64,000 bases of DNA, taken from contig JAUCBJ010008614.1 of NCBI GenBank assembly GCA_032718475.1, positions 1 through 64,000 of the forward strand, read 5' to 3'. The notes beneath the pieces were generated by a model that saw nothing but the letters and a program-made list of their open reading frames with translations, ran no database searches and was not told the DNA's origin. Each line of letters opens with the position of its first letter. The first letter of the stretch is position 1. Position numbers and translations under genes: made by a program. This stretch comes from Nemertoderma westbladi. Its lineage: Eukaryota > Animalia > Xenacoelomorpha. Shown piece by piece: positions 4,282-62,522 of this stretch.

Positions 4282-5137
4282 TAATATAATATTCCCCAAA
4301 TTTAGCCGTTGAAGGTGAAATGGGTTGTGCTTGTAGTCAGCAGCGACATGATATATCCATTGTAAGGTTATGGAACAGACTCATATTTGAATGGATGACA
4401 GACGGGTTGAAATTCGTGCAATTTTTGATTTGGTAGGTTATGGAACAACATAATTTCTAGGGTGTTCGGACACTTCCCCCCGGACAGTTCCCCCCCCCCC
4501 CCCCCCGCTCAAAGAGGACACTTCCCCCCCGGACACTTCCCCCCCCCCAGACACTTCCCCCCCGACTGTTCTTAACTTCGCACATTCGTATTTTTCATTT
4601 TGTAAGGTAAACGGACCGCTTGTATCCAGATAAGTTGTATCCAATTTTCCTTTCGTAGCTCAGAAAGTGACCTTTTGCATCCCGATTTTACATTTTATAT
4701 CCAAGTTTTATTTATGGGTTTTATCAATGCAATTACATCGTATTGTTTGCTAATCTTTAAACAATTAATTATTGGTTTTAATTATTGGTATTATTATCTA
4801 ATTGTTTCTTCAAATTGTAGCAGATGGGGATGAATATTATTGTTGCAAGCAAAATTATACCTCTCCAGGGTAAAATCGACATGCGTCGACCTGTATTCTG
4901 TGTTCAGCATTACATATTGATATACATATTACTACTATACATACTATATAGATATTATACACACTACATATTAAATTTCCTGGTTACTTGCAATATTTTT
5001 AATTAATTTGGTTAACATTCAATACAGCTCCTACTTTAGGCTTAGTCAATTTATTATCTGATGATACAAACATGAATTAATTATTTCAAAATGGTCTTTT
5101 AAGTATTCCTTCCACCACGGGCACTCAGGGAAATGCC

Positions 5138-6862: not shown

Positions 6863-7102
6863 TTAAGGTCTCGTCCTATCGGCCTCGGTGACGTCTCCAG
6901 GTACCACACACCGGCCCGTAGTCTCGGTGTTAGCAGCGGGGGTCTCCGGTTTGGGTTTACTGCGTTTCAGACAGTTTCCATCAGGGTACCGCACCTTGAA
7001 CCTGGCCACAACGTCCGGATCCAGGAGTTTCACTCCGTCCAGTTGGTTGCCCAGAGTGATCCAGTTTGGTTGCACATTGTGCTCGCGGCCGAATAACTCG
7101 AC
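6863..7102 (-). CDS. METTL3: METTL3 terminal coding exon 4
   Basis: tattttag|GTC GAG gives VELFGREHNVQPNWITLGNQLDGVKLLDPDVVARFKVRYPDG then stop. Four exons total 1779 nt = 592 aa plus stop. Confidence 0.95.
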   Translation of the reverse strand, partial: VELFGREHNVQPNWITLGNQLDGVKLLDPDVVARFKVRYPDGNCLKRSKPKPETPAANTETTGRCVVPGDVTEADRTRP

Positions 7103-7136: not shown

Positions 7137-7331
7137 TTATAACTTTTGTTGGGCACAGCTTGGCAAAGACGGCAATAACGACCTTGTGGCATCGAACTGG
7201 TGACCTCCGGGTTGGTAGTCTGATGTTCTAACCAATCAGCTAGCCGCTCAGGTAAAAGGTAGGCCTGGCAATTAATACTACTTGTATGTCCGCAATTTAC
7301 CGCCTCATGGCCCCCCATCTGACAATACCAT
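7137..7331 (-). repeat. Family A tRNA-like repeat next to the METTL3 exon 4 acceptor
   Basis: Reverse-complement similarity to 534-731. Confidence 0.85.
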
Positions 7332-8760: not shown

Positions 8761-9049
8761 CATTGTTACTTGTTTTGCATATTTCCAAGTTTATTTCTGT
8801 GAACTATGTCTAAATTATATCTCATTTTAAACGGTTATTTCTCATTTAAAAAAAAATCAAATTGACATAAATAAAATTGCACAATTTGCAAGGTTAATGA
8901 TTCATTAATGATAAAATCTTAATAAAATCTTAATAAAATCAAGATAGGTTAAAATCGTGACACCCAGCATTTGGTTATACGTTATTAAAAATTACGTTTA
9001 AAAATCACTAAATTAAAATCACGCATAGAAGAAATATGTGTAGTCACCT

Positions 9050-9600
9050 TATACAATGTTGAAATAGGGTAGTATACGTTCTCGCTTGGTCTCAAATGAA
9101 CATGACATCCCAAGACAGTCTAAAACGAAATATTTCTTAATTTGCTCTGCCAATGTCAGGGACCCTATTCCCAAGCGTGATAGTAAGTTAGTTTTGCTAT
9201 ACTCTGAATTAAAAATAGTTAGCGATGGCATCGAGAAACTATGCAAACATTTGTTGTAGACACTCCCTCCCCATGTCCAGATAATTTCACCTTTGAGTAT
9301 ACTGTGAGTGTTCTCAATGTGCTTTGAAGAGGGATACTGGGACATGTTTTTGATCGAAACACTGTCCGAAAACTTCACTGATAATGTTCGGCATCCAAAA
9401 AGTTCGTATAAAATCTGGTTAAAGTCACATAAGGACCCAGGTGCAATAGACCACGCAGAGTATTACGGTAGTATACCTCAAGCTCATTCATCTCAGCTTT
9501 AGTTAACGCCCCCACTATGTATTTGACCGTGTATTGTATGGTGGGTACACGAAACGTGCGCCAAAGGTAGCCCAATGTATCGCAGTCCAGCCATCGAACT
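9050..9600 (-). mobile_element. Degraded non-LTR retrotransposon C-terminal fragment
   Basis: LWRTFRVPTIQY...LTKAEMNELEVYYRNTLRGLL resembles the post-RT region of RTE-type LINEs; frameshifted. Confidence 0.4.
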
Positions 9601-10060
9601 GTCCAACAATTACGGTGAAAAAACTCTGATATAGAGGACAGAGGTAATGGTCAGGAAACAATCTGTATAGTCTTCCCCCACATTTAATAGGAACGCTTAC
9701 GAACGTACCACTAGGAACGTAAGAGTCTTGTGGGGCTACTAGTGCGCCGCCAGCTCTCAGAATTACATATCAATACTACATTTGAAAAATTTGTCGAAAT
9801 CGTCAGAATCGTTGTCGCCTTCTTCGCTACCCAACATTTTAATATTTACGGTCAGATGGTAGCAGTATAACAGAGTACAAATTAGTTTAGTTTGATTACA
9901 ACGGCTGCCCAGGCATTGAATATACCAATACAAGCAACAGTCTCATCAGTATTCTAGACCCAATTTATCCAATTACAATCACTCTGACAGTGGGGAAATA
10001 ATGTGTCAATCACTACATTACTACAATACAATCCCCTCTATTGTTAATAAGACAACCTAC

Positions 10061-10379
10061 CTTACGGGACCCGGGACTCAATCTCTCAATAATCCCGTAG
10101 ATTTCGTCCGGTTTGTGCGAGGTATCCCGGACTTCCGATACGAGGATATCGCAGTCGATGCCCCTGTTAAACACGTCGGTGTCGACGTTTCCCTTAACCC
10201 CGACGATGCAATGTTCCTTGCCGTGGTTCAACCAATGCCCCGTCCGTCCCGTACGAATTAGTCGTTGTAACTGGTTCGTTTTAACCCAAATAAGTTCGTC
10301 GCAACGTTTATAACCCCACAGTCGCAGGCATTCCCTGCCTAATTCCATTGCTCTACCCGTTACCCATAGGAATAGATAT
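10061..10379 (-). CDS. METTL3: METTL3 coding exon 3 (MT-A70 domain)
   Basis: tctccttag|A TAT CTA gives (G)[18 protein letters not shown]...[27 protein letters not shown]...[20 protein letters not shown]|gtaggt; phase matches exons 2 and 4. Confidence 0.96.
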
Positions 10380-10445
10380 CTAAGGAGATAATTAATAATA
10401 AGTGCATGCAGGTTAGTGTTGGGTTTAGGGAATGAGGGGTTTAGG

Positions 10446-13400
10446 GGTGGGATTAACTAACCCGTCGTCCTGTACACTGGGTGGGTAGGATTAACTAACC
10501 GGTCGTCCTGTTGACTGGGTGGGTAGGATTAACTAACCCGCCGTCAAGAAGACTGGGTGGGTGTGACTAACTAACCCGTCGTCCTATAGACTGTGTGGGT
10601 GAGACTAACTAACCGGTCGTCCTGTAGACTGGGTGGGTGGGACTAACTAACCCCTCGTCCTATAGACTGGGTGGGTGTGACTAACTAAACCGTCGTCCTA
10701 TAGACTGTGTGGGTGAGACTAACTAACCCGTCGTCCTGTAGACTGGGTGGGTGGGACTAACTAACCCGTCGTCCTGTAGACTGGGTGGGTGGGACTAACT
10801 AACCCGCCGTCAAGAAGACTGGGTGGGTGTGACTAACTAACCCGTCGTCCTATAGACTGTGTGGGTGAGACTAACTAACCCGTCGTCCTGTTGACTGGGT
10901 GGGTGGGACTAACTAACCCGTCGTCCTGTAGACTGGGTGGGTGGGACTAACTAACCCGTCGTCCTATAGACTGTGTGGGTGAGACTAACTAACCCGTCGT
11001 CCTGTAGACTGGGTGGGTGGGACTAACTAACCCGTCGTCCTGTAGACTGGGTGGGTGGGACTAACTAACCCGCCGTCAAGAAGACTGGGTGGGTGTGACT
11101 AACTAACCCGTCGTCCTATAGACTGTGTGGGTGAGACTAACTAACCCGTCGTCCTGTTGACTGGGTGGGTGGGACTAACTAACCCGTCGTCCTGTAGACT
11201 GGGTGGGTGGGACTAACTAACCCGTCGTCCTATAGACTGTGTGGGTGAGACTAACTAACCCGTCGTCCTGTAGACTGGGTGGGTGTGACTAACTAACCCG
11301 CCGTCAAGAAGACTGGGTGGGTGTGACTAACTAACCCGTCGTCCTATAGACTGTGTGGGTGAGACTAACTAACCCGTCGTCCTGTAGACTGGGTGGGTGG
11401 GACTAACTAACCCGTCGTCCTGTAGACTGGGTGGGTGTGACTAACTAACCCCTCGTCCTATAGACTGGGTGGGTGTGACTAACTAACCCGTCGTCCTGTA
11501 GACTGGGTGGGTGTGACTAACTAACCCGTCGTCCTGTAGACTGGGTGGGTGGGATTAACTAACCCGTCGTCCTATAGACTGGGTGGGTGTGACTAACTAA
11601 CCCGTCGTCCTGTAGACTGGGTGGGTGGGACTAACTAACCCGCCGTCAAGAAGACTGGGTGGGTGTGACTAACTAACCCGTCGTCCTGTAGACTGGGTGG
11701 GTGTGACTAACTAACCCGTCGTCCTGTAGACTGGGTGGGTGTGACTAACTAACCCGTCGTCCTGTAGACTGGGTGGGAGTGACTAACTAACCCGTCGTCC
11801 TGTAGACTGGGTGGGTGGGACTAACAAACCCGTCGTCCTATAGACTGGGTGGGTGAGACTAACTAAGCCGTCGTCCTGTAGACTGGGTGGGTGAGACTAA
11901 CTAACCCGTCGTCCTGTAGACTGGGTGGGTGGGACTAACTAACCCGTCGTCCTGTAGACTGGGTGGGTGTGACTAACTAACCCGTCGTCCTGTAGACTGG
12001 GTGGGTGTGACTAACTAACCCGCCGTCAAGAAGACTGGGTGGGTGTGACTAACTAACCCGTCGTCCTGTAGACTGGGTGGGTGAGACTAACTAACCCGTC
12101 GTCCTGTAGACTGGGTGGGTGTGACTAACTAACCCGTCGTCCTGTAGACTGGGTGGGTGGGACTAACTAACCCGTCGTCCTATAGACTGGGTGGAACTAA
12201 CTAAGCCGTCGTCCTGTAGACTGGGTGGGCGAGACTAACTAACCCGTCGTCCGGTAGACTTGGTGGGACTAACTAACCCGTCGTCCTTTAGACTGGGTGG
12301 GTGTGACTAACTAACCCGTCGTCCTGTAGACTGGGTGGGTGTGACTAACTAACCCGTCGTCATGTAGACTGGGTGGGTGGGACTAACTAACCCCTCGTCC
12401 TATAGACTGGGTGGGTGTGACTAACTAACCCGTCGTCCTGTAGACTGGGTGGGTGTGACTAACTAACCCGTCGTCCTGTAGACTGGGTGGGTGGGACTAA
12501 CTAACCCGTCGTCCTATAGACTGGGTGGGACTAACTAAGCCGTCGTCCTGTAGACTGGGTGGGCGAGACTAACTAACCCGTCGTCCGGTAGACTTGGTGG
12601 GACTAACTAACCCGTCGTCCTTTAGACTGGGTGGGTGTGGCTAACTAACCCGTCGTCCTGTAGACTGGGTGGGTGTGACTAACTAACCCGTCGTCCTGTA
12701 GACTGGGTGGGACTAACTAACCCGTCGTCCTGTAGACTTGGTGGGACTAACTAACCCGTCGTCCTGTAGACTGGGTGGGCGAGACTAACTAACCCGTCGT
12801 CCTGTAGACTGGGTGGGTGGGATTAACTAACCCGTCGTCCTGTAGACTGGGTGGGTGTGACTAACTAACCCGTCGTCCTGTAGACTGGGTGGGACTAACT
12901 AACCCGTCGTCAAGAAGACTGGGTGGGTGTGACTAACTAACCCGTCGTCCTATAGACTGTGTGGGTGAGACTAACTAACCGGTCGTCCTGTAGACTGGGT
13001 GGGTGGGACTAACTAACCCCTCGTCCTATAGACTGGGTGGGTGTGACTAACTAAACCGTCGTCCTATAGACTGTGTGGGTGAGACTAACTAACCCGTCGT
13101 CCTGTAGACTGGGTGGGTGGGACTAACTAACCCGTCGTCCTGTAGACTGGGTGGGTGGGACTAACTAACCCGCCGTCAAGAAGACTGGGTGGGTGTGACT
13201 AACTAACCCGTCGTCCTATAGACTGTGTGGGTGAGACTAACTAACCCGTCGTCCTGTTGACTGGGTGGGTGGGACTAACTAACCCGTCGTCCTGTAGACT
13301 GGGTGGGTGGGACTAACTAACCCGTCGTCCTATAGACTGTGTGGGTGAGACTAACTAACCCGTCGTCCTGTAGACTGGGTGGGTGTGACTAACTAACCCG

Positions 13401-16387
13401 CCGTCAAGAAGACTGGGTGGGTGTGACTAACTAACCCGTCGTCCTATAGACTGTGTGGGTGAGACTAACTAACCCGTCGTCCTGTAGACTGGGTGGGTGG
13501 GACTAACTAACCCGTCGTCCTGTAGACTGGGTGGGTGTGACTAACTAACCCCTCGTCCTATAGACTGGGTGGGTGTGACTAACTAACCCGTCGTCCTGTA
13601 GACTGGGTGGGTGTGACTAACTAACCCGTCGTCCTGTAGACTGGGTGGGTGGGATTAACTAACCCGTCGTCCTATAGACTGGGTGGGTGTGACTAACTAA
13701 CCCGTCGTCCTGTAGACTGGGTGGGTGGGACTAACTAACCCGCCGTCAAGAAGACTGGGTGGGTGTGACTAACTAACCCGTCGTCCTGTAGACTGGGTGG
13801 GTGTGACTAACTAACCCGTCGTCCTGTAGACTGGGTGGGTGTGACTAACTAACCCGTCGTCCTGTAGACTGGGTGGGAGTGACTAACTAACCCGTCGTCC
13901 TGTAGACTGGGTGGGTGGGACTAACAAACCCGTCGTCCTATAGACTGGGTGGGTGAGACTAACTAAGCCGTCGTCCTGTAGACTGGGTGGGTGAGACTAA
14001 CTAACCCGTCGTCCTGTAGACTGGGTGGGTGGGACTAACTAACCCGTCGTCCTGTAGACTGGGTGGGTGTGACTAACTAACCCGTCGTCCTGTAGACTGG
14101 GTGGGTGTGACTAACTAACCCGCCGTCAAGAAGACTGGGTGGGTGTGACTAACTAACCCGTCGTCCTGTAGACTGGGTGGGTGAGACTAACTAACCCGTC
14201 GTCCTGTAGACTGGGTGGGTGTGACTAACTAACCCGTCGTCCTGTAGACTGGGTGGGTGGGACTAACTAACCCGTCGTCCTATAGACTGGGTGGGACTAA
14301 CTAAGCCGTCGTCCTGTAGACTGGGTGGGCGAGACTAACTAACCCGTCGTCCGGTAGACTTGGTGGGACTAACTAACCCGTCGTCCTTTAGACTGGGTGG
14401 GTGTGACTAACTAACCCGTCGTCCTGTAGACTGGGTGGGTGTGACTAACTAACCCGTCGTCATGTAGACTGGGTGGGTGGGACTAACTAACCCCTCGTCC
14501 TATAGACTGGGTGGGTGTGACTAACTAACCCGTCGTCCTGTAGACTGGGTGGGTGTGACTAACTAACCCGTCGTCCTGTAGACTGGGTGGGTGGGACTAA
14601 CTAACCCGTCGTCCTATAGACTGGGTGGGACTAACTAAGCCGTCGTCCTGTAGACTGGGTGGGCGAGACTAACTAACCCGTCGTCCGGTAGACTTGGTGG
14701 GACTAACTAACCCGTCGTCCTTTAGACTGGGTGGGTGTGACTAACTAACCCGTCGTCCTGTAGACTGGGTGGGTGTGACTAACTAACCCGTCGTCCTGTA
14801 GACTGGGTGGGACTAACTAACCCGTCGTCCTGTAGACTTGGTGGGACTAACTAACCCGTCGTCCTGTAGACTGGGTGGGCGAGACTAACTAACCCGTCGT
14901 CCTGTAGACTGGGTGGGTGGGATTAACTAACCCGTCGTCCTGTAGACTGGGTGGGTGTGACTAACTAACCCGTCGTCCTGTAGACTGGGTGGGACTAACT
15001 AACCCGTCGTCCTGTAGACTGGGTGGGACTAACTAACCCGTCGTCCTATAGACTGGGTGGGCGAGACTAACTAACCCGTCGTCCTGTAGACTGGGTGGGT
15101 GGGATTAACTAACCCGTCGTCCTGTAGACTGGGTGGGACTAACTAACCCGTCGTCCTGTAGACTGGGTGGGCGAGACTAACTAACCCGTCGTCTTGTAGA
15201 CTGGGTGGGACTAACTAACCCGTCGTCCTGTGGACTGGGTGGGTGCGACTAACTAACCCGTCGTCTTGTAGACTGGGTGGGACTAACTAACCCGTCGTCC
15301 TGTAGACTGGGTGGGTGGGATTAACTAACCCGTCGTCCTGTAGACTGGGTGGGACTAACTAACCCGTCGTCCTGTAGACTGGGTGGGCGAGACTAACTAA
15401 CCCGTCGTCTTGTAGACTGGGTGGGACTAACTAACCCGTCGTCCTGTGGACTGGGTGGGTGCGACTAACTAACCCGTCGTCTTGTAGACTGGGTGGGACT
15501 AACTAACCCGTCGTCCTGTGGACTGGGTGGGTGCGACTAACTAACCCGTCGTCTTGTAGACTGGGTGGGACTAACTAACCCGTCGTCATGTGGACTGGGT
15601 GGGACTAACTAACCCGTCGTCATGTGGACTGGGTGGGACTAACTAACCCGTCGTCCTGTAGACTGGGTGGGTGTGACTAACTAACCCGTCGTCCTGTAGA
15701 CTGGGTGGGTGGGACTAACTAACCCGTCGTCTTGTAGACTGGGTGGGACTAACTAACCCGTCGTCATGTGGACTGGGTGGGACTAACTAACCCGTCGTCC
15801 TGTAGACTGGGTGGGTGTGACTAACTAACCCGTCGTCCTGTAGACTGGGTGGGTGGGACTAACTAACCCGTCGTCTTGTAGACTGGGTGGGACTAACTAA
15901 CCCGTCGTCTTGTAGACTGGGTGGGACTAACTAACCCGTCGTCCTGTGGACTGGGTGGGTGCGACTAACTAACCCGTCGTCTTGTAGACTGGGTGGGACT
16001 AACTAACCCGTCGTCATGTGGACTGGGTGGGACTAACTAACCCGTCGTCATGTGGACTGGGTGGGACTAACTAACCCGTCGTCCTGTAGACTGGGTGGGT
16101 GTGACTAACTAACCCGTCGTCCTGTAGACTGGGTGGGTGGGACTAACTAACCCGTCGTCTTGTAGACTGGGTGGGACTAACTAACCCGTCGTCATGTGGA
16201 CTGGGTGGGACTAACTAACCCGTCGTCCTGTAGACTGGGTGGGTGTGACTAACTAACCCGTCGTCCTGTAGACTGGGTGGGTGGGACTAACTAACCCGTC
16301 GTCTTGTAGACTGGGTGGGACTAACTAACCCGTCGTCCTTTAGACTGGGTGGGTGGGACTAACTAACCCGTCATCTTGTAGACTGGG
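10446..16387. repeat. 34-38 bp minisatellite, about 160 copies, built from the METTL3 exon 2/intron 2 junction
   Basis: Plus-strand unit gactaactaacccgtcgtcctgtagactgggtgggtgg; the terminal unit runs directly into exon 2. Confidence 0.98.
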
Positions 16388-16492
16388 GACATCTAACTTC
16401 CTCATTTCATCGTCACTCATGGTTCCGTACGGCAGCTCCATATGGATATCCCATGGAGGATCCGCCATAATTACAGCGAATTTACCTAAAAC
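16368..16492 (-). CDS. METTL3: METTL3 coding exon 2, catalytic DPPW motif (125 nt; missed by ORF track)
   Basis: cttattag|GTTTTAGGTAAA translates VLGKFAVIMADPPWDIHMELPYGTMSDDEMRKLDVPSLQDD-G; ends GACGG|gttagt, phase 2. Confidence 0.96.
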
Positions 16493-17515: not shown

Positions 17516-20500
17516 ACCAAGGAATGCCTGTTTACCACCTTGGGTGATCTTCCACAGTAAACCCTTCCACTCTGTTTCCTAAAGGAATGCCTGTTTACCA
17601 CCTTGGGTGATCTTCCACAGTAAACCCTTCCACTCGGTTTCCTAAAGGAATGCCTGTTTACCACCTTGGGTGATCTTCCACAGTAAACCCTTCCACTCTG
17701 TTTCCTAAAGGAATGCCTGTTCACCACCTTGGGTGATCTTCCACAGTAAACCATTCCAATCTGTTTCCTAAAGGAATGCCTGTTTACCACCTTGGGTGAT
17801 CTTCCACAGTAAACCCTTCCACTCTTTTTCCTAAAGGAATGCCTGTTCACCACCATGGGTGATCGTAAACAGTAAACCCTTCCACTCTGTTTCCTGAAGG
17901 AATGCCTGTTCACCACCATGGGTGATGTTCCACAGTAAACCCTTCCACTCTGTTTCCTAAAGGAATGCCTGTTCACCACCTTGGGTGATCTTCCACAGTA
18001 AACCCTTCCACTCTTTTTCCTAAAGGAATGCCTGTTCACCACCATGGGTGATCGTAAACAGTAAACCCTTCCACTCTGTTTCCTGAATGAATGCCTGTTC
18101 ACCACCATGGGTGATGTTCCACAGTAAACCCTCCCACTCTGTTTCCTAAAGGAATGCCTGTTCACAACCATGGGTGATCGTAAACAGTAAACCCTTCCAC
18201 TCTGTATCCTAAAGGAATGCCTGTTCACCACCATGGGTGATGTTCCACATCCACAGTAAACCCTTCCACTCTGTTTCCTAAAGGAATGCCTGTTCACCAC
18301 CATGGGTGATCTTCCACAGTAAACCCTTCCACTCTGTTTCCTAAAGGAATGCCTGTTCACCACCATGGGTGATCTTCCACAGTAAACCCTTCCACTCTTT
18401 TTCCTAAAGGAATGCCTGTTTACCACCATGGGTGATCTTCCACAGTAAACTCTCCCACTCTGGTTCCTAAAGGAATGCCTGTTCACCACCATGGGTGATC
18501 TTCCACAGTAAACACTTCCACTCTGTTTCCTAAAGGAATGCCTGTTCACCACCATGGGTGATCTTCCACAGTAAACCATTCCACTGTGTTTCCTAAAGGA
18601 ATGCCTGTTCACCACCATGGGTGATCTTCCACAGTAAACCATTCCAATCTCTTTCCTAAAGGAATGCCTGTTCACCACTATGGGTGATCTTCCACAGTAA
18701 ACCCTTTCATTCTGTTTCCTAAAGGAATGCCTGTTCACCACCATGGGTGATCCTCCACAGTAAACCCTTCCACTCTGTTTCCTAAAGGAATGCCTGTTCA
18801 CCACCATGGGTGATCTTCCACAGTAAACCATTCCAATCTCTTTCCTAAAGGAATGCCTGTTCACCACCATGGGTGATGTTCCACAGTAAACCCTTCCACT
18901 CTGTTTCCTAAAGGAATGCCTGTTCACCACCTTGGGTGATCTTCCACAGTAAACCCTTCCACTCTTTGTCCTAAAGAAATGCCTGTTCACCACCATGGGT
19001 GATCGTAAACAGTAAACCCTTCCACTCTGTTTCCTGAAGGAATGCCTGTTCACCACCATGGGTGATGTTCCACAGTAAACCCTTCCACTCTGTTTCCTAA
19101 AGGAATGCCTGTTCACCACCATGGGTGATGTTCCACAGTAAACCCTTCCACTCTGTTTCCTAAAGGAATGCCTGTTCACCACCATGGGTGATCTTCCACA
19201 GTAAACCCTTCCACTCTGTTTCCTAAAGGAATGCCTGTTCACCACCATGGGTGATCTTCCACAGTAAACCCTTCCACTCTTTTTCCTAAAGGAATGCCTG
19301 TTTACCACCATGGGTGATCTTCCACAGTAAACCCTCCCACTCTGGTTCCTAAAGGAATGCCTGTTCACCACCATGGGTGATCTTCCACAGTAAACCCTTC
19401 CACTCTGTTTCCTAAAGGAATGCCTGTTCACCACCTTGGGTGATCTTCCACAGTAAACCCTTCCACTCTTTGTCGTAAAGGAATGCATGTTCACCACCAT
19501 GGGTGATCGTAAACAGTAAACCCTTCCACTCTGTTTCCTGAAGGAATGCCTGTTCACCACCATGGGTGATGTTCCACAGTAAACACTTCCACTCTGTTTC
19601 CTAAAGGAATGCCTGTTCACCACCATGGGTGATCGTAAACAGTAAACCCTTCCACTCTGTATCCTAAAGGAATGCCTGTTCACCACCACCATGGGTGATC
19701 TTCCACAGTAAACCCTTCCACTCTGTTTCCTAAAGGAATGCCTGTTCACCACCATGGGTGATCTTCCACAGTAAACCATTCCACTCTTTTTCCTAAAGGA
19801 ATGCCTGTTTACCACCATGGGTGATCTTCCACAGTAAACCCTCCCACTCTGGTTCCTAAAGGAATGCCTGTTCACCACCATGGATGATCTTCCACAGTAA
19901 ACCCTTCCACTCTGTTTCCTAAAGGAATGCCTGTTCACCACCTTGGGTGATCTTCCACAGTAAACCCTTCCACTCTTTGTCCTAAAGGAATGCCTGTTCA
20001 CCACCATGGGTGATCGTAAACAGTAAACCCTTCCACTCTGTTTCCTGAAGGAATGCCTGTTTACCACCTTGGGTGATCTTCCACAGTAAACCCTTCCACT
20101 CTGTTTCCTAAAGGAATGCCTGTTTACCACCTTGGGTGATCTTCCACAGTAAACCCTTCCACTCGGTTTCCTAAAGGAATGCCTGTTTACCACCTTGGGT
20201 GATCTTCCACAGTAAACCCTTCCACTCTGTTTCCTAAAGGAATGCCTGTTCACCACCTTGGGTGATCTTCCACAGTAAACCATTCCAATCTGTTTCCTAA
20301 AGGAATGCCTGTTTACCACCTTGGGTGATCTTCCACAGTAAACCCTTCCACTCTTTGTCCTAAAGGAATGCCTGTTCACCACCATGGGTGATCATAAACA
20401 GTAAACCCTTCCACTCTGTTTCCTGAAGGAATGCCTGTTCACCACCATGGGTGATGTTCCACAGTAAACCCTTCCACTCTGTTTCCTAAAGGAATGCCTG

Positions 20501-21936
20501 TTCACCACCATGGGTGATCGTAAACAGTAAACCCTTCCACTCTGTATCCTAAAGGAATGCCTGTTCACCACCACCATGGGTGATCTTCCACAGCAAACCA
20601 TTCCAATCTCTTTCCTGAAGGAATGCCTGTTCACCACTATGGGTGATCTTCCACAGTAAACCCTTTCATTCTGTTTCCTAAAGGAATGCCTGTTCACCAC
20701 CATGGGTGATCCTCCACAGTAAACCCTTCCACTCTGTTCCCTAAAGGAATGCCTGTTCACCACCATGGGTGATCTTCCACAGTAAACCATTCCAATCTCT
20801 TTCCTAAAGGAATGCTGTTCATCACCATGGGTGATGTTCCACAGTAAAGCCTTCCACTCTGTTTCCTAAAGGAATGCCTGTTCACCACCATGGGTGATCG
20901 TAAACAGTAAACCCTTCCACTCTGTATCCTAAATGAATGCCTGTTCACCACCATGGGTGATGTTCCACAGTAAACCCTTCCACTCTGTTTCCTAAAGGAA
21001 TGCCTGTTCACCACCATGGGTGATCTTCCACAGTAAACCCTTCCACTCTGTTTCCTAAAGGAATGCCTGTTCACCACCATGGGTGATCTTCCACAGTAAA
21101 CCCTTCCACTCTTTTTCCTAAAGGAATGCCTGTTTACCACCATGGGTGATCTTCCACAGTAAACCCTCCCACTCTTTTTCCTAAAGGAATGCCTGTTCAC
21201 CACCATGGGTGATCTTCCACAGTAATAACTTCCACTCTGTTTCCTAAAGGAATGCCTGTTCACCACCATGGGTGATCTTCCACAGCAAACCATTCCACTC
21301 TGTTTCATAAAGGAATGCCTGTTCACCACCATGGGTGATCTTCCACAGTAAACCATTCAACTCTGTTTCCTAAAGGAATGCCTGTTCACCACCATGGGTG
21401 ATCTTCCACAGTAAACCATTCCACTATATTACCTAAAGGAATGCCTGTTCACCACTATGGGTGATCTTCCACAGTAAACCCTTCCACTCTGTTTCCTAAA
21501 GGAATGCCTGTTCACCACCATGGGTGATCTTCCACAGTAAACCATTCAACTCTGTTTCCTAAAGGAATGCCTGTTCACCACCATGGGTGATCTTCCACAG
21601 TAAACCATTCCACTATATTACCTAAAGGAATGCCTGTTCACCACCATGGGTGATCTTCCACAGTAAACCCTTCCACTCTGTTTCATAAAGGAATGCCTGT
21701 TCACCACCATGGGTGATCTTCCATAGTAAACTCTCCCACTCTGGTTCCTAAAGGAATGCCTGTTCACCACCATGGGTGATCTTCCACAGTAAACCATTCC
21801 ACTCTCTTTCCTAAAGGAATGCCTGTTTACCGACATGGGTGATCTTCCACAGTAAACCATTCCACTCTGTTCCTATAGAAATGCCTGTTCACCACCATGG
21901 GCCATCTTCCACAGTAAACCCTTACACTCTGTTTCC
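17516..21936. repeat. 63 bp minisatellite, about 70 copies, in METTL3 intron 1
   Basis: Unit cctaaaggaatgcctgttcaccaccatgggtgatcttccacagtaaacccttccactctgttt; one minus-strand frame is open as a 21-aa repeat. Confidence 0.98.
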
Positions 21937-26455: not shown

Positions 26456-26760
26456 GGCAATGACGTCCGCGTGGGTTCGAACTGGTGACCTCCATGTTGT
26501 AAGTCTGGCGCTCTAACCATTCCGATAGCGGCTCAGGTAAAACCTAGACCTGGATATTGACTGGTATTGACAGATGGGAGGCCATGAGGAGGTAAATTGC
26601 GGACATACAAGGTATCAGATAGTATTTCCAGGTCTATATTTTACATGAGCCGCTAGCTGAATGGTTAGAGCGTCAGACTTCCAACCCGGAGGTCACCAGT
26701 TCGATCCCACCTGGACGTCAATGCCCACTATTCTAAAAGCTGGGCCCATTGAAAGCTATA
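26456..26760. repeat. Head-to-head pair of family A repeats near the METTL3 exon 1 donor
   Basis: Partial minus-strand copy 26456-26555 abuts a full plus-strand copy 26561-26760. Confidence 0.85.
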
Positions 26761-26838: not shown

Positions 26839-27933
26839 TTTCATATCGAAGGTTCGGACATCCGACTGAACCCACTGTGCCGGAAACGCGATGAACTTAT
26901 CCATGGGGACCACGGCCTTGGGGGTCCCGGTGGCGGGCGAGTCAGTACCGGAACCCGCCACCGGGCTGGCCAACACGACCGGGGGCTGATGCTCGACCTC
27001 GTAATGGACGTACTTGCAGCTCTGCATGTGGAAGCAAGTGTTGAGGAAGGAGCAATCCCCTAGAGACTCGTCGGTGTGCGGTTGGATGATTTTCTTGAAG
27101 TGGGATTTACGGCAAACACCGTTGGGGTCGGCTCGCAAACATTCTTCCCGAGTCCCATGCAAACAGAAAGCCACCAAAGATGTCCCTTCTTCTGACTTAA
27201 ACTTATCCAGCTGATTCAACTCCTTAGCTGTAGGAGTTGAAAGGATTGAAACAATCTCGTCGTTGAGTTTCTTCGATTGGCCTTCTTTTACGGAGGATGT
27301 CGCGAGCAGATCGTGTAGATCGACCGAGGTTTTATCCCGTTTGTACGCGGGTTCTACGTCGTCGATTTCGCGTTTCCGTTTACGATTTGCGTCGGAACCG
27401 TCGACGTTGGCCCCGTTACGAGCCTCCGATATCGCGGAGACTTTCGAGATGTTCACCTGGTGGATCTCGAGACTCGGTCCATCCAAAGAGCTGCTCTCTC
27501 GCACCTCGATCAGCTGTTGGACGGCGAACTTCTGCAAGAGATTCTCAACGTCCGATACGCTTATCTCTCCCGGTAAATCCATCGTTTTACAAATTTGGTT
27601 TCGGATTTGCGTGGACAGCACCGGTAGATCGACGCAGCTCTGTAGTAAACATTCCACCAGTTTCCCTTCAAGAACATCGTTGCTCGCTGTGCATTCCGCT
27701 TTAGATATAGGGATTTTAATATCCTCAATTAGCGGTTTAATATCAGGTTTTATATCGATCCATTTCGCTTCTGCTTTGATAGGCCTACCCGAAGGATTTT
27801 CGCCATCGTTGTAACTATCTGTGAGTACGGATTGTAAAGCCTGACGCTCCTTTTTTCGTCTAGCCAATCTCTCACGCAGTCCCTCATTCTTTTGTCTTAA
27901 CGCTTGTATTTCTGTCCACGTATCGGTAGGCAT
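26839..27933 (-). CDS. METTL3: METTL3 coding exon 1 (N-terminal leader, two CCCH zinc fingers, start of MTase domain)
   Basis: ORF contains FCLHGTREEC...CRKSHFKKIIQPHTDESLGDCSFLNTCFHMQSCKYVHYE and PAQWVQSDVRTFDMK, matching METTL3; ends AAA|gtaagt, phase 0 (365 codons). Confidence 0.96.
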
Positions 27934-32647: not shown

Positions 32648-32868
32648 TTACACCTTTGCCTCTTCCAATTCTTTTTCGAGTAATTTCAGTTCAGTGGCAT
32701 GTTCTGACAACATATCTATTAGAATTTCGGTTTTGAGTTTTAGTAAGTTATTCTCCGATCTAAGAGATGAGTTGGTATGTTTCAACTGATTGTATTCTTT
32801 GTTAGAAACCCCAGCATCTCCAGTTCCACTGGGTGGGTGTTTGCTACTGGATTCCAGTACCCAATTCC
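32648..32868 (-). CDS. CBY1: Chibby-family protein coding exon 2 (coiled coil)
   Basis: ctttcag|GG AAT TGG gives (G)NWVLES...LRSENNLLKLKTEILIDMLSE...LLEKELEE, the Chibby ENNLLxLK..IL.DML signature; total 135 aa. Confidence 0.9.
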
Positions 32869-34014
32869 CTGAAAGAGTTACAAATATTAAGTTGTGTTGG
32901 ACAGGTTGTTTACGAGCTGAACTGGTCAAATGGAAGTGGCTAGAATTTATGATCCTTAGTTTACCACAATTTGTAAAATGTAGGAAGTCATTAAATGCAG
33001 TAATGCAATGCAAACCATAGTTATCGTTGAGAGAGCCTATCCTTAAAAATGAAATCTTCAGAAATCCGTGTTTACAGTAGTGGGCAAGTTGTATTAGGTC
33101 AAAAACTGTATTTGATTTGTGTCACTTCATGTAATTAATAATTTCGCAAACCAAGATATTTTGTAGAATGAGGACATTTAATGTAATGTACATATTAGCC
33201 CGTATGGCGAATTTACTTTTCATATTGATACATAAAAGTGTATGTGTCCGCAGTCGTTATACCAGCTTAAAGGAAAGCAAATATGTATTAAACTGGGAAG
33301 TTAAATAAATAGTAAGTTTCAAAAATAACCCCGAAAATATGGCAGAACATATTAAAATACTAATTCTTCAATAATGCGTTGGGGCAATGCAATTTAGTAC
33401 CAAAAAAATTTACATCACAATAAAAAAGGTTATAATAAATAATATGTATGTATATTATGCCTATGGCTATGCGTCTATTTTATTGTTATTCAGTTAAGAG
33501 GGCCTACGACTGCTACCAGCAGTCTAACTACACTACTGTATTGTGCTATTTCGGTTTATTTTGGGAATTTCTGAGGTCTGTCGACTATAAGGTAATAAAT
33601 AATTATGAATTATTAAAGTAGAATAGGTAATGTTAAACGATAAATTAAACATTTTTTAAAATCATATAGGACTTTGTCTATAATTCCATCATCTTCACAA
33701 TTCAATATATAATTGTGAATCACATTGAAGTTTAGACGTATATTTATCATTAAAATAATAAAATGTGAATAATATATAAGAAAATCTTAAACTATCAGTA
33801 AAATTACAGAATTAAAGATTCCATATAAGTAATGATACTGTGTTTATGAAACTACCAACTTTAAATACACAAAATTAGTATACATGCACAAGGATAATGA
33901 AAAATTAATTATTATAAATTACATACTAGATTCAAGATTGTAAGATATGTAGCATCTGTGAGGCCTCTAAAGGACCCCATCGTCTGAAGGGGAGAGGGGG
34001 GGGGGGGGGGGGGA

Positions 34015-40327: not shown

Positions 40328-42906
40328 GTGTCTGTCCAGTGTCTGCACCAGTTTCCGCACCACTGTCTGCACCAGTGTCTGCACCAGTTTCGGCACCACT
40401 GTCTGCACCAGTGTCTGCACCAGTGTCTGCACCACTGTCTGAACCACTGTCTGCACCACTGTCTGCACCACTGTCTGCACCACTGTCTGCACCACTGTCT
40501 GCACCACTGCGTGCACCAGTGTCTTCACCACTGTCTGCACCACTGTCTGCGCCACTGTCTGCACCAGTGGCTGCATCAGTGTATGCACCACTGCGTGCAC
40601 CACTGTCTGCACCAGTGTCTGCACCACTGTCTGCACCACTGTCTGCCCCAATGTCTGACTCACTGTCTGCACCACTGTCTGCACCACTGTCTGCACCACT
40701 GTCTGCCCCAGTGTCTGCACCACTGTCTGCACCACTGTCTGCACCACTGTCTGCGCCACTGTCTGCACCAGTGTCTGCATCAGTGTATGCACCACTGTCT
40801 GCGCCACTGTCTGCACCAGTGTATGCACCACTGTCTGCGCCACTGTCTGCACCAGTGTCTGCATCAGTGTATGCACCACTGCGTGCACCACTGTCTGCAC
40901 CAGTGTCTGCACCAGGTGTCTGCATCAGTGTCTGCACCACTGTCTGCACCAGTGCCTGCACCACTGTCTGCACCAGTGTCTGCATCAGTGTATGCAACAC
41001 TGCGTGCACCACTGTCTGCACCAGTGTCTGCACCACTGTCAGCACCAGTGTCTGCACCACTGTCTGCACCAGTGTCTGCACCACTGTCTGCACCAGTGTC
41101 TGCACCACTGTCTGCACCACTGTCTGCGCCACTGTCTGCACCAGTGTCTGCATCAGTGTATGCACCACTGCGTGCACCAGTGTCTTCACCACTGTCTGCA
41201 CCACTGTCTGCGCCACTGTCTGCACCAGTGGCTGCATCAGTGTATGCACCACTGCGTGCACCACTGTCTGCACCAGTGTCTGCACCACTGTCTGCACCAC
41301 TGTCTGCCCCAATGTCTGACTCACTGTCTGCACCACTGTCTGCACCACTGTCTGCACCACTGTCTGCCCCAGTGTCTGCACCACTGTCTGCACCACTGTC
41401 TGCACCACTGTCTGCGCCACTGTCTGCACCAGTGTCTGCATCAGTGTATGCACCACTGTCTGCGCCACTGTCTGCACCAGTGTATGCACCACTGTCTGCG
41501 CCACTGTCTGCACCAGTGTCTGCATCAGTGTATGCACCACTGCGTGCACCACTGTCTGCACCAGTGTCTGCACCAGGTGTCTGCATCAGTGTCTGCACCA
41601 CTGTCTGCACCAGTGCCTGCACCACTGTCTGCACCAGTGTCTGCACCACTGTCTGCACCACTGTCTGCACCAGTGTCTGCATCAGTGTATGCGCCACTGC
41701 GTGCACCACTATCTGCACCAGTGTCTGCACCACTGTCAGCACCAGTGTCTGCACCACTGTCTGCACCAGTGTCTGCACCACTGTCTGTACCACTGTCTGC
41801 ACCACTGTCTGCACCACTGTCTGCACCACTGTCTGCGCCACTGTCTGCACCAGTGTCTGCATCAGTGTATGCACCACTGCGTGCACCAGTGTCTTCAGCA
41901 CTGTTTGCACCACTGTCTGCGCCACTGTCTGCACCAGTGGCTGCATCAGTGTATGCACCACTGCGTGCACCACTGTCTGCACCAGTGTCTGCACCACTGT
42001 CTGCACCAGGTGTCTGCAAAAGTGTCTGCACCACTGTCTGCACCAGTGTCTGCACCACTGTCTGCACCAGTGTCTGCACCACTGTCTGCACCACTGTCTG
42101 CACCACAGTCTGCACCACTGTCTGCACCAGTGTCTGCACCACTGTCTGCACCACTTTCTGCACCAGTGTCTGCACCACTGTCTGCACTACTGTCTGCACC
42201 ACTGTCTGCACCACTGTCTGCACCACTCTCTGCACCACTGTCTGCACCAGTGTCTGCACCAGTGTCTGCACCACTGTCTGCACCACTGTCTGCACAACTG
42301 TCTGCACCACTGTCTGCACCAGTGTCTGCACCACTGTCTGCACAACTGTCTGCGCTACTGTCTGCACCAGTGTCTGCACCAGTGTCTGCACAACTGTCTG
42401 CGCTACTGTCTGCACCATTGTCTGCACCAGGTGTCTGTACCACTGAATGCACCAGTGTCTGCACCAGTGTCTGCACCAGGTGTCTGCACCACTGTCTGCA
42501 CCACTGTCTGCGCCACTGTCTGCACCAGTGTCTGCATCAGTGTATGCACCACTGCGTGCACCACTGTCTGCACCACTGTCTGCACCAGTGTCTGCACCAC
42601 TGTCTGCACCACTGTCTGCACCAGTGTCTGCACCACTGTCTGCACCACTGTCTGCACAACTGTCTGCGCTACTGTCTGCACCAGTGTCTGCACCACTGTC
42701 TGCACAATTGTCTGCGCTACTGTCTGCACCAGTGTCTGCACCAGGTGTCTGCACTACTGTCTGCACCACTGTCTGCGCCACTGTCTGCACCAGTGTCTGC
42801 ATCAGTGTATGCACCACTGCGTGCACCACTGTCTGCACCACTGTCAGCACCAGTGTCTGCACCACTGTTTGCACCAGTGTCTGCACCACTGTCTGCACCA
42901 CTGTCT
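40328..42906. repeat. 12 bp minisatellite (gcaccactgtct)n with about 661 bp higher-order duplication
   Basis: About 210 units; blocks near 40500-40920 recur near 41160-41580; single-base insertions (ccaggtg) shift the register. Confidence 0.97.
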
Positions 42907-42909
42907 GAT

Positions 42910-45900
42910 TAACGTTTACACCCCGTAAATAATTATGTAGGAGCTAAACGCGACATCCTGAACAAAAGTAATGCAGAGGTGAAGAATATATGTAATCTAT
43001 GCAAAAGCAAATCCTTACAAATTTCGCCACTTATGTTAGCTTTAATCCTGGACCTATCTCTGCATCCTTTATATACAGAGTTTTAAACGTATTTACATCC
43101 CCGAATTTAAGAGAACCAAGTTTTCTCGATTGAGACAAAGTTCTCACAGATTAAACGTATGTAGAAGGAATTGGGATTGGGGTTGTATTTTAATACAGAG
43201 CACCTAAACGACAGTTTGGCGATGCCACCTGCACGACGGGGTTCGCTTCCAGATCGTGACCCTCCAAACAAATCAACGGCATCTACAAATGTAAAGCAGA
43301 AGAACCCTGGCAGTCATGCCACAACAACGCCACAAAAACCCCGGGACAATCCACCCCTTCCAAACGACAAGAAACAAAAAAAGAAACCCAACGCCAAAGA
43401 ATGGATTAACTATTGATGTGGAATGCACTGCCTGTACTATGGTATGGACAGCAATACAAACCCGATTTATAAATGAGTTCCAGAGACTTCTGCTGTGGAT
43501 TCTGCTCAGCAAACAAAATCAACGATTTAGAGAATGAAAAGATAACCCTAGAAAACAAACTAGAGTTTCTACAAAAGACCGCGACACTGGATCATCCATC
43601 TCCACCAATATCCTACGCAGACGTCACACGTAGGGATACCCCTCAGCAATCTAGTAATGACGTAACTACTAATGTTGCGCTACTGTCAAAACAAATGAAA
43701 CAAGAAGAGAAGGAACAACTACAATGGAAAAACAACATTGTGATCCGCGGAACTCAACCGAAGCCAAACAATAAAGAAGATTCTCTACTATCAAAAGAGA
43801 TTGCAAACGAACTGGATGTCGATATTGACCCGACACAAATAACAAAAAAGCGAGTGGGGAATCAGGGACCCGACAACTCCCAAAATCTTGTTGTGACTCT
43901 AACATCTGAGCAACGAAACCAACTTCTCAAGAAAGCTCGGAATCTGCGATCCAGTCGCCGCTTCGGCAAAGTATATATATCCCCCGACTATACCCCAGCC
44001 GAGCAGAAACTGCGCTACGATTTGAGACAGAGCAAACGTACAGCCGAATCCAACTTCCCTGACAAACAATGGATTATATACAGGGGAGCTGTCCGCGAAA
44101 TGCCGGCCAGTTGGGGCCCATCCCTCGGCTACAGATCAACTTCCTTAACCCCCCAGACTACAGTCCCCTCACCAGTTGCAACCCAATTAAACTCAACTAT
44201 TTCCATTGATTCGAAACAGTCTACACCCACACACCTCACATCAACCTACAACTATTCCATAAGGTCGACGACCATTGACCACAGTAAGGATGTAGATTGA
44301 CTACCACGATCAAACTACAACAACGCTACCAGAGTTCACCCATGGCTGCATATCTTTGAAACGCCAGGTATTCATATAGCCCATCTCAATGTGAAAAGCA
44401 CCCTGCCGAAAATCGAAGAAATAAAACTCCAAATCCATTGACGTGTTGACGCTATCCGAAACATGGCTTGACAATTCAACCACAAATCATGTGTTAAAAG
44501 TACCAAGCTACAACTTATACAGAAATGACCGTGATAGGGAAGGTGGAGGTGTCGCCATCTACATTCTGGAAAGTCTTTCATTTAACCAGATTCCAAACTG
44601 CCATAACAGTGAACTGGAATGTATCTACGGCAATCTAAATCTACCTCATACTAAACCAATCCTATTGGGAACTATATATCGCCATCAAAGCAACTTATCC
44701 TTCTTTGAAGACTTAGAAACTGCCCTCGGTGACATCTCCAGTTACAAAGAAGTATTTATACTAGGTGACACTAACAGTGACACACTTAACATACACAACC
44801 AAAACACTGCAATCCAAAGAACAAACCTACAAACTTTCTGCAACACATCCAGTCTAATCCAACTAATAAAGGAGCCAACACGAGTAACGGCTTCCACCAA
44901 AACAACTATCGACCACATTTTCACATCTCGAACATGTCAGAACTTAAGATCGGATTCAGCGATCATTATATGGTTTATGTCACGAGGAAGAGGGCAAGAA
45001 ATGTAAATCGAAACAAACATTGTACACGCTACTGCCGCTCATACAAACAATATTCCCCCGATCTATTATGTAACCATCTCAATAGCAACTCAAGCTTGCA
45101 ATCAATCACATCTGAAGTAAGCGCCAATAGAGCAGCTGAAACCCTTACCGATGAACTGACACGAATACTTAACGTCATTGCGCCACACAGTAACGTCCGA
45201 GTTAAATCGAAAACCGAGCCATGGATGAATAGTTCAATAATAACTCTCATGCACTCCCGGAGCACCGCACTCAAAAGATTTTATGCACACAGAACCACTT
45301 CCAACTACTGTACAACTCCTACAAACAGATCAGAAACGACGTTGTATCTAAAATTCGTGTTGCCAAAGAAACATATATTAAAACCAAACTGGATCAAAAC
45401 AAATCCAACAGCAAAGAACTATGGAAGACTTTAAAGGATATTGGAGCCCCCTCAAAGCGATCAAACAACTAACTGATAATCCCCCTCCCTCGTCAGGGTA
45501 CTACAGTACACCGGTCAAATACTCAAAGATTTCTACTCCAACAAAGGTATTGTAGAGAACAGCTTCTCTTTACAACAAACTGACCGCATCACCATCCTGA
45601 AGATTCTACACAATCTAGATGCCTCAAAGAGCAGTGGTCCCGACGAAATCAGCCCGAGAATTTTAAAAGATGGCTCCACAATCTTAGCCAACTACTGTAT
45701 ATAACGCACATTGTAAACCTATCCATTAATACAGGCACATTCCCGTCAATCTACAAAATAGCCAAAGTAATCCCTGTCTTCAAGAACAGTAGTAGGCTGC
45801 AAACCTGCAACTTTAGACCAATCTACAAATAATATCAAAGGTCCTGGAGAAGGTTGTATGTAATATGACCAACTTGCCGATTATCTAATACGAAACAACA

Positions 45901-47300
45901 TTCTGGACATCTTGCAGTCCGGTGTTCGCCCCGGATTTTCGGTTCAAACGTGCCTTTTACACTTGGTGGACTTTATCCGAGGGGCCATGGACACCGGCCA
46001 GTTAGTTGGAATGATCGGGATAGACTTCAAGAAGGCGTTCGACACAATAGACCGGGACAAGCTCTTACTAAAACTCAAATATATTGGTCTAGACACAAAC
46101 TCTCTAAAGTGGTTCAGCTGTTACCTCTCCAATAGATTCCAGTTTGTCCAGATTGGTAGATCGAAATCAAAAACTCGGCGGATAGACCTAGGGACCCCAC
46201 AGGGTGCACTTCTAGCAGTCCTACTCTTTGTCATCTACATGAACGACCTTGACTTAGCCACAAAGTTACAACCCGAAACTCACAAGATTCAAGCACCACT
46301 AGCTATCAAATATGCGGACGACACAAACTTGGTACAATCTGGATCAAACGCAGAGGAAATTGCAACGTCGCTGACACAAACTCTATCGCGAGTATCAGAA
46401 TGGGCGTCGGGGTCGGACAATGGTAAATTCGAACTAATGCTCTTCGGTACACGTCAACGACTATCAATCACAAACTCTGACAAATTCAAAGTATTTTTAA
46501 GAATCAAAATATTGCGACATCCAACAGCGTAAACTATTTGGGTTTCACACTCGATGCGACACTTACCGGTACAGCCGCGGCCCGCAAAGCGATCCGAAAG
46601 GGGAACTCTTGCTTGAAATTTCTTTATCGAAATTCGCGGATTCTCGACGCACACCTACGTCGAATCCTATGCAACTCCCTTATCCTGCCACTTATTGACT
46701 TTGCGGCACCATGCTGGTACCCGAGCACATCCGTCCATCTCAGAGAACAAGTGGATACTCTACATAGGAAATGCATCCGTTTCTGTCTGTCTCTAGATAA
46801 ACGCGCCCATATCGATGCCAACCACTTTGTCGCCATGAACTGGCTGCCAATCAAAGAGCGAACGAGCCAAATTTATTTATCCCACATGTTCAACATATAC
46901 ACTGAGTCCGCACCGCAATACCTCCGCGATCTTGTAGCGTTTGACGAGACTACAGCGCACTTAATAAAGTGGCTCTGCACACGCAAAAATACCACAAAAA
47001 CTCACAGTCACGTGCGCACAATCAATATCGTACGTTGGGCCGCAGTTATGGAACAACTTCAGAACTTGCCCGCGGAAATCCAACAATCCCCGACATCCGA
47101 GACTTTCAAACATAGAGTGAAAGCGCATTTACTTAAAGGCATTGTTGAAAACCATTTGAGTAATTTTACTTAACTTTTACTTTACAACAACTTATACTAA
47201 CTTTATTTTAATATCTTTCAAATTTTTCATATTGTATCGTGATTTACCGTACGAAGTGGCAACAACAATATCTCAAAACTGCCCATTATTATATGAATGT
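42910..47300 (+). mobile_element. Near full-length disabled LINE (L2/CR1 group, Crack/Daphne-like): ORF1 plus APE-RT ORF2
   Basis: ORF1-like 43224-44300 (Cys cluster, coiled coil, NNIVIRG, VYISPDYT). Endonuclease motifs LSETWL, RNDR.REGGGVAIY, ILGDTN, TTIDHIF. RT motifs IDFKKAFDTI, GTPQG, YADDT. Several frameshifts and stops. Confidence 0.92.
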
Positions 47301-60943: not shown

Positions 60944-61413
60944 CTAAGTGGAAAAACATAAGACAACTATATATTATATTGATATATACAAATAATACCG
61001 TTATGCCAATGACTCCAACGTAGCACACCTTATTGTGTTGCTTCATTAATAGTCGCCACACCACACATGTACACATCTGCACAACTTACCTATACCTATG
61101 CTATAATGAATACTGTGGTTCGTTTTTTATTTGTCTTGTTCCCACTTAATCTTCAACTTCCCAACGCTTTTATTTCCTTTTTTAGCGCTTTAATCCTCGT
61201 TGCTTTACTTGTTCTCACTCACTAGGTTCGTTCATCTAATAAATCACTCGATTCAGCACAATGTCAACGGTTACTACACACACAAGTAGGCCTCTGTGTA
61301 ATGTAAACAGAAAACGTTACCTTTGCCGTATAGTACCTGACCTGAATGGATTTGAACTTTACTTGATCTACAATTAACCACCAATCTGGCCGTCTTGTTG
61401 ACCATCTACTAAC

Positions 61414-62522
61414 CTGTTCCGTGCGCATCCTGTTGTATCATGTTGTATTGGAGTAATTGATGCGCGTTCCGCTCAGTCAGTGTGTAAAGGTACAACCCAC
61501 CCACTGCCGATCCCGCAATAGCCAATACAACCAATATTAGTGCGACTATCGCCACCCACAATGCGGCTCGTTGGTGACACAAACAACAACGACTTCCTCC
61601 ACCTTGTACGGTTGATGTTTCCTTGTCCAGAGTGTCGTCTAGACTCCCCAGTCTGTTTAACTCTATTGCGATATCAGCTGAGCTCTCCTCATGAGAAGGT
61701 GCTGCTGTTTTCTTTCCATGTTTTTTCGGTTTATCTATTTTTTCAGTTTTATTAATCGGCTTATCTTTATCAGTTTTTTTATTCTTCTTTTTTTCTTTTT
61801 CGACTTTTGTCGCAGAAGATTCATCTTTAACATATCCAGGGTTAATCTCGCCCGTATTGTAGTATTCGTCGTGTGTACCTGTAACGCCCCCCGGCGAATC
61901 TCCAGAGTATGGATAAGTTGGTTTGAACGGAGGTGTTATATAGGAAGGCTGTTTTTGTATTTTTGGCTTTTCTTTCAATGTTGGTTTCTTCTTTTTTATT
62001 ACCGGCCCCGTGATTGGTTGTTGACTGCCTCCCACCTGGCCTGTGATTGGTTGTTGACTGCCTCTCGCCTGGCCTGTGATTGGTTGTTGACTGCCTCCCG
62101 CCTGGCCTGTGATTGGTTGTTGACTGCCTCTCGCCTGGCCTGTGATTGGTTGTTGACTGCCTCCCGCCTGGCCTGTGATTGGTCGCTGACTGACTCCCCC
62201 TACCCTTCCACTTGCGGCAGCTCCTTTCTGCTCGTTTCTCCGTACAAAGTGACCGATACTGTTCATCCTGTCCCTCTTGATCGTTTGGCTTACGGTCGCC
62301 TATTTCACTGGCAGTCTTTATATCGGAGTAATGGCCCTCTTCATCCTCACTATCTGACGAGCCCCCCACTTCCATGGTATTTATATAATCTGGGTCGTTT
62401 ACTGATATATTCTGGTATACATTGGAGGTCCTCGGGTTCTCCGGCGTTTCATTTGGTTTAAATTTTTTCCATTTTTTCTTTAACTTTTCCGCTAGATCAT
62501 CATCGGCTTGAACTGAATCCAT
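61414..62522 (-). CDS. Uncharacterised type II membrane protein, 5' coding region; needs one frame change near 62000-62270
   Basis: Two overlapping ORFs (62522 start; 62266-61409). Tyr-motif-rich acidic N-terminus, 11-aa repeats, Lys-rich segment, RCCLCH, then hydrophobic AALWVAIVALILVVLAIAGSAVGGLYLY; donor ACA G|gttagt at 61413. Confidence 0.65.
62007..62183. repeat. 33 bp tandem repeat (5-6 copies) inside the type II membrane gene
   Basis: ggcctgtgattggttgttgactgcctcccgcct, equal to GQAGGSQQPIT. Confidence 0.9.

Follow-up and report, generated by a model that had tools for sequence, protein, structure and literature searches.

An exon-intron-boundary minisatellite in intron 2 of METTL3 of Nemertoderma westbladi, spliced from its first donor in an assembled transcript

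A minisatellite built from an exon end and its splice donor

The window analysed here, positions 1 to 64,000 of contig JAUCBJ010008614.1 (assembly GCA_032718475.1) of the xenacoelomorph Nemertoderma westbladi, carries on its minus strand the gene of the N6-methyladenosine (m6A) writer METTL3. Nearly the whole second intron of this gene (5,988 nt) is a minisatellite, whose unit combines the last 20 nt of METTL3 exon 2 with the first 14-18 nt of intron 2 and therefore contains the exon-intron boundary itself. Among 160 donor-like copies of this boundary, the first is the authentic 5' splice site, and this is the site used by the majority METTL3 mRNA in the one sequencing run where a spliced contig was found. 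Most probably, the array is an exon-intron-boundary minisatellite that expanded neutrally by slippage and is tolerated by first-donor selection, with nonsense-mediated decay (NMD) as a back-stop.

Tandem Repeats Finder places the array at 10445-16387 (period 38, 160.0 copies, score 9156). On the minus strand it comprises 125 units of 38 nt and 34 units of 34 nt, which fall into 31 unit types and are organised in higher-order repeats, and its donor-like copies extend from 16367 to 10461. The authentic site, CGG/GTTAGT (16362..16370; the slash marks the exon-intron boundary), sets the intron start at 16367. With this site included, the 160 donor contexts read CGG/GTTAGT in 141 cases, GGG/GTTAGT in 6, CCG/GTTAGT in 3, and CGG/GTTTGT in 2, while GT is lost in eight copies (six CT, two TT). 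Thus, GT is kept in 151 of the 159 extra copies. The original prediction, made from the letters of this DNA alone, had stated that nearly every unit keeps the context of the real donor; this is right for the 140 of 159 copies with the exact 9-mer, but amounts to 88%. The remaining unique 3' part of the intron (10380..10444) holds the branch point CACTAAC (10418-10412), a pyrimidine tract, and the AG acceptor. Splicing from the most distal donor copy (10456..10464, GT at 10461) would leave an intron of 82 nt, a plausible ancestral state judging from the sequence. In all these respects, from the number of donors to the length of the intron, the branch point, and the distal-donor intron, the anatomy first proposed was borne out. 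The unit spans the boundary, the real splice site lies in the first unit, and the signal is kept along the array, as in other boundary minisatellites. Concerted turnover is evident from the higher-order blocks and from the two units at the 3' end, which are unique types. No further copy of the unit or of the unique intron part was found within the window, where the best matches measure 11-15 nt.

All 159 alternative donors lead to the same first stop, a TAA in the first unit (16340..16342) that corresponds to codon 416, and the protein of 592 amino acids is obtained from donor 16367 only. The expectation that any other donor would truncate METTL3 was thus confirmed in silico. Each of the 159 stops also lies upstream of the last exon junction, as alternative splicing coupled to NMD would require. 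The TAA in the first unit was considered as a selected feature and rejected, because later stops would truncate the protein anyway. At position 16373 (-6), the exon carries a T, whereas all 159 copies have a C that forms a CpG. This silent difference suggests that the exon was altered after the array began, and the T marks donor 1 in reads. The GGTTAGT of the unit is the exact reverse complement of the branch-point 7-mer (10418-10412), and weak pairing between donor copies and the branch point is conceivable; this is probably chance, as one unit has been multiplied. On the strand opposite to the gene, ACTAAC and DRACH words abound along the array (617 DRACH).

The METTL3 gene and its relatives

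The gene consists of four coding exons. Exon 1 (26839..27933) starts with ATG, encodes a CCCH zinc-finger region in 365 codons (1,095 nt), and ends at the donor AAA/GTAAGT. Exon 2 (16368..16492, 125 nt) contributes the catalytic DPPW motif (residue 376 of the predicted protein), and supplies, with its last 20 nt, the exon-derived half of the repeat unit. The remainder of the MT-A70 domain (PF05063), which is divided between exons 2 and 3, is encoded by exon 3 (10061..10379, 319 nt). The fourth exon (coding part to the stop, 6863..7102) is joined to exon 3 in the transcript contig described below. Across the junction of exons 2 and 3, the predicted protein aligns without gaps and colinearly with 20 animal METTL3 proteins. 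Judged by this colinearity, the zinc-finger region, and the MT-A70 domain with DPPW, the gene is METTL3.

A close relative was not found, the best listed matches showing 34-43% identity over exon 1, and runs X6 and X7 of the same study, which derive from other organisms, contain next to no exon-1 words of METTL3. In a tree of 29 out of 120 homologs, hand-picked among the named ones, the protein falls outside both the protostomes and the deuterostomes sampled, on a long branch whose placement is unsure. Among metagenome loci, the position of intron 2 is unbroken in 79 of the 80 best out of 462. One locus (4514-4760, a eukaryotic METTL3) contains two introns of 57 and 48 nt at the equivalents of codons 412/413 and 421, just downstream of the intron-2 position in the window and not at that position. 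These loci are uninformative on the age of intron 2, because the way they were selected favours contigs that lack introns or stem from transcripts.

The donor used in the assembled transcript

Four runs (X1-X4) were compared over positions 9000-10440. In X1, a single contig matched among 1,901,655 records (1,980 nt, 0 mismatches, contig depth 1,834). Within the compared region this contig spans all of exon 3 and nothing else, with no cover of intron sequence, and its loose ends are the true end of exon 2 and the start of exon 4, 30 nt each, letter for letter. The last nucleotides of the real exon are not matched over 6 nt by any of the 159 copies, and no match extends beyond 5 nt. Because no copy has more than these 5 nt of the real exon end, the junction in X1 could be assigned to donor 16367, and the majority METTL3 mRNA in this run uses the first donor. 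The contig extends for 1,284 nt upstream of exon 3, which would fit exon 2, exon 1, and a leader of 64 nt (125 + 1,095 + 64). Although X1 is labelled 'DNA?', it is a transcriptome, since the contig is spliced. Eight runs were listed, none of them recorded as RNA; such a label tells nothing about expression. A retrocopy is unlikely as the source of the contig, because X1 covers no intron sequence and the contigs of the three DNA runs continue through both introns.

Copy number and support by the assembly

The number of copies in the array was taken from the assembly alone, where a large internal duplication (10956..15011) deserves attention; none of the short-read contigs spans the array. The segment 15011-13056 equals 12911-10956 over 1,956 bp with 2 mismatches (period 2,100 bp, 56 units), and the longest exact match is 1,239 bp. 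Either recent unequal exchange or a duplication made in assembly could account for this, and the array count lies between about 104 and 160. The array might thus be real but inflated, if joined haplotypes or reads had produced the 2,100-bp duplication, and the true count would then be nearer 104. The near-identity of the two segments speaks for such an inflation, and some assembly errors may remain, to judge from a break resembling a frameshift in another gene near 62290. However, the 31 unit types form higher-order blocks that are nested and recur at many different offsets (144, 216, 266, 334, and 428 bp), which is expected from real turnover, and the two duplicated blocks differ by the 2 substitutions and an extra block of units. 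Together with the distinct end units, the nested blocks look like genuine minisatellite turnover. Moreover, the exon-3 contigs of X2, X3, and X4 run on beyond 10440, the point at which the repeat sets in, by 34, 139, and 95 letters; these figures are lengths only, and the three runs may be the source of the assembly itself. Inflation is therefore regarded as rather unlikely, and it would alter the number of units, not the anatomy of the array.

Origin and expansion

The end of exon 2 and the start of intron 2 have a short GTCCC match in common, 34 nt apart. Those 34-nt units that lie closest to the exon are distinguished from the real exon by position -6 alone, and the 38-nt units contain one added CCCA. 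The array may thus have originated from a 34-nt duplication between the GTCCC matches, after which a 4-nt slip of CCCA would have given rise to the 38-nt units. Slippage and unequal exchange, which would also have enlarged the other big arrays of the window, would then have driven its further growth, as the higher-order repeats suggest. The peptide encoded by the exon-derived part is unaltered in 93 of the 159 copies, and therefore an unequal exchange that swaps the exon end for such a copy leaves the protein unchanged. Intron gain by tandem duplication of an exonic AG/GT was rejected as an origin, as the unit contains no AGGT and both acceptor and branch point lie in unique sequence.

The surroundings are rich in similar structures. 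Nine arrays occupy 14,881 bp, or 23% of the window, including 4.4 kb in METTL3 intron 1, where a 63-nt minisatellite (17519..21936, 70 copies) is unrelated to the intron-2 unit. This array shows that large arrays grow here even without a donor in the unit, and in such a region no particular cause is required for one of them to arise at a splice site. When the 63-nt array is read on the sense strand, acceptor-like CCTTYAG/G occurs in 62 units and one frame is uninterrupted over 959 codons; an additional exon derived from this array would hardly fit into the X1 contig, given the contig's length.

A probably tolerated array: evidence and objections

How a gene could accommodate so many donors is suggested by human F7 (see below). 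The donor nearest the exon-2 acceptor would likely be committed first, either by 5'-to-3' first-donor selection or by exon definition across the 125-nt exon, during transcription. Any transcript spliced by leakage from a later donor would meet its stop at codon 416, before the junction of exons 3 and 4, and NMD would probably remove it; the array would therefore cost little. Neutrality, tolerated via exon definition or first-donor choice, had been among the options of the original prediction, and it gains from the use of donor 16367 in X1 and from the F7 precedent. The first 48 copies all keep GT, the first copy without it being number 49, and no purge of near competitor donors is seen. RNA structure was rejected as a cue for donor 1, because the signal is weak: over -3..+6, the predicted openness is 0.39 at donor 1 compared with 0.35 +/- 0.07 in the copies, and 37 of 159 copies equal or exceed donor 1 in this respect.

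Several points weigh against this explanation. Over +1..+6, donor 1 is predicted to be more open than the average copy (0.56 vs 0.41 +/- 0.09), and position may not be the only cue for its choice. The donor columns vary less by frequency than the other columns (mean minor-allele share 1.3% vs 6.0%), which fits weak constraint in direction, the copies not being independent of each other. Contig assembly drops minor isoforms, and a sizeable leak to donors 2-4 would stay hidden. The evidence for the donor comes from one run of one study, and the label of this run reads 'DNA?' in spite of its spliced contig. Elsewhere, splicing is not always indifferent to such arrays: array length alters splicing in human ABCA7 through exon 19 skipping (PMC5954066), and nearby pseudo-sites are used in 6-16 and CBS (PMC1557585). 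Finally, the scanning model stems from mammalian cells and thus from another lineage than this animal.

Alternative explanations

The array could instead exert a length-tuned control of dosage, by diverting transcripts to later donors or to exon skipping and lowering METTL3 via NMD as copy number rises. The premature stop behind each of the 159 other donors and the GT retained in 151 of them would suit such a function. Skipping of single exons would lead to stops at codons 374 and 431, whereas a double skip of exons 2 and 3 stays in frame and predicts a protein of 444 amino acids without DPPW. In ABCA7, moreover, skipping of a downstream exon rises 3.2- to 4.1-fold with array length (PMC5954066). 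If the array were polymorphic, longer alleles might favour later donors or skipping, including the in-frame exon 1-4 form, which by its predicted sequence would keep the zinc fingers and lose the catalytic core, and m6A would then vary transcriptome-wide with the allele. Against a control of dosage, the only X1 contig represents the canonical form, with the reservation about minor isoforms made above. In F7, copy number is without effect (PMC1557585), and use of the second donor in ABCA7 is about 2%, independent of length (PMC5954066). The donor columns show no significant constraint, and the units contain no DRACH that could serve self-feedback by METTL3. The sense strand of intron 2 has three DRACH words, all in the unique 3' end and none in the units, and m6A feedback by METTL3 itself was rejected on this ground. 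All in all, dosage control by array length appears improbable, and a similarly low probability is given to a polymorphic dial acting on m6A.

Two further functions that had been proposed for the array were not supported. Stepwise (recursive) splicing would remove the intron unit by unit or in blocks, and the abundance of donors is all that speaks for it. The intron contains neither AGGT nor YAG/GT in its 5,988 nt, and therefore a donor cannot be re-created at an acceptor by any splicing step. If a later donor were joined to 10379, the only strong acceptor would be consumed, and splicing from donor 1 to the CAG of a unit would leave 8 nt and shift the frame. This mechanism is hardly credible for the array. 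A U1 decoy or telescripting field, in which selection would keep the copies to load U1 small nuclear ribonucleoprotein on nascent RNA, has somewhat more to commend it. Of 11 positions, 7 match U1 in these donors, as in the other two donors of the gene, and positions +2, +3, and +5 to +8 are invariant in the 159 copies. However, columns outside the donor are invariant too (-20, -17 to -15, and -8 to -5), and the number of distinct variants (5 in 9 donor columns vs 22 in 25 others, p = 0.51) reveals no significantly stronger conservation of the donor. In addition, the array is itself nearly all of the intron that would need protection. A decoy function is thus very unlikely.

If METTL3 output were shown to depend on array length, in the way that exon skipping does in ABCA7, the locus would matter much more. 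With the boundary minisatellite taken as neutral and tolerated, its interest lies in the choice of donor: with 151 further GT donors available, selection of the first one apparently still prevails in a conserved gene for an m6A writer, and it does so in an animal that sits on a long branch, remote from both mammals and lancelets. Donors can be told apart by the T at -6 and by the 31 unit types, and the locus thereby offers a natural test of 5'-to-3' donor commitment.

Other features of the window

Outside METTL3, the plus strand carries a broken retrotransposon of the long interspersed nuclear element (LINE) type at 43473-47173, with an ORF1-like frame and with the endonuclease (PF03372) and reverse transcriptase (PF00078) in separate frames. 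It is adjoined by a 12-nt minisatellite (40336-42907, 214 copies) that has long open reading frames in either orientation. A partial Chibby gene (PF14645) lies on the minus strand at 32648-33121. Two overlapping open frames on the same strand (61409-62525) look like one membrane protein and include a 33-nt coding repeat (62010-62198); they had no Pfam match. The frame break near 62290 could be an assembly indel or a small intron. Dispersed copies of a tRNA-like short interspersed nuclear element were recognised by eye in and around METTL3 (26640-26740, 26470-26540, 7200-7260, and 600-700).

Comparison with known boundary minisatellites

The closest counterpart is intron 7 of human F7, where a 37-bp variable number tandem repeat (VNTR) of 5-9 copies is spliced from the first donor alone, and minigenes with 1 to 12 units use the most upstream site only, unless a downstream site is a perfect consensus (PMC1557585). 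Both loci have units of nearly equal size across the exon end and donor, identical pseudo-donors after the real one, exons of almost the same length (124 nt in F7, 125 nt in METTL3), and use of the first donor. They differ in the number of units (5-9 vs about 160) and in the exon nucleotides within the first unit (4 vs 20), and F7 is known from minigenes whereas the METTL3 locus is known from one contig. Intron 18 of human ABCA7 has a 25-bp VNTR that starts at the donor and ranges from 12 to about 427 units, and use of the donor in the next unit entails a premature stop and NMD (PMC5954066, PMC13747324). The METTL3 array likewise begins at the donor and reaches kilobase size, and in silico use of its next donor leads to a premature stop. 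In ABCA7, by contrast, length polymorphism and an effect of length on downstream exon skipping have been demonstrated, and the skipped exon is in frame, whereas single skips in METTL3 shift the frame.

Other members of this class have been described. Intron 2 of 6-16 (25 pseudo-sites) and intron 13 of CBS (15-20 units) are each reported with two pseudo-sites also in use, and the pseudo-sites of the lamin B2 and PDGF minisatellites as unused (PMC1557585); as in METTL3, the donor recurs after the real one in these genes, there 10-25 times. The amphioxus 'mirages' (Adh3, globins, troponin C, PGBD5) are boundary duplications that leave splicing undisturbed (PMC3087553, PMC3902484). Like the METTL3 array, they are tandem boundary copies from an invertebrate; the splice signals persist, the interior is homogenised, the units at the ends have diverged, and the mRNA is normal. 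The globin cases have 3-6 units compared with 160, and the animal studied here is not a lancelet, judging from the METTL3 tree. A literature search at listing level found no report of such an array in METTL3. The original prediction had treated the anatomy as new; with F7, CBS, 6-16, ABCA7, and the amphioxus mirages, however, the class was already described, and anatomy, size, and invertebrate occurrence were all known. On every feature that could be tested, the METTL3 array belongs to these exon-intron-boundary minisatellites.

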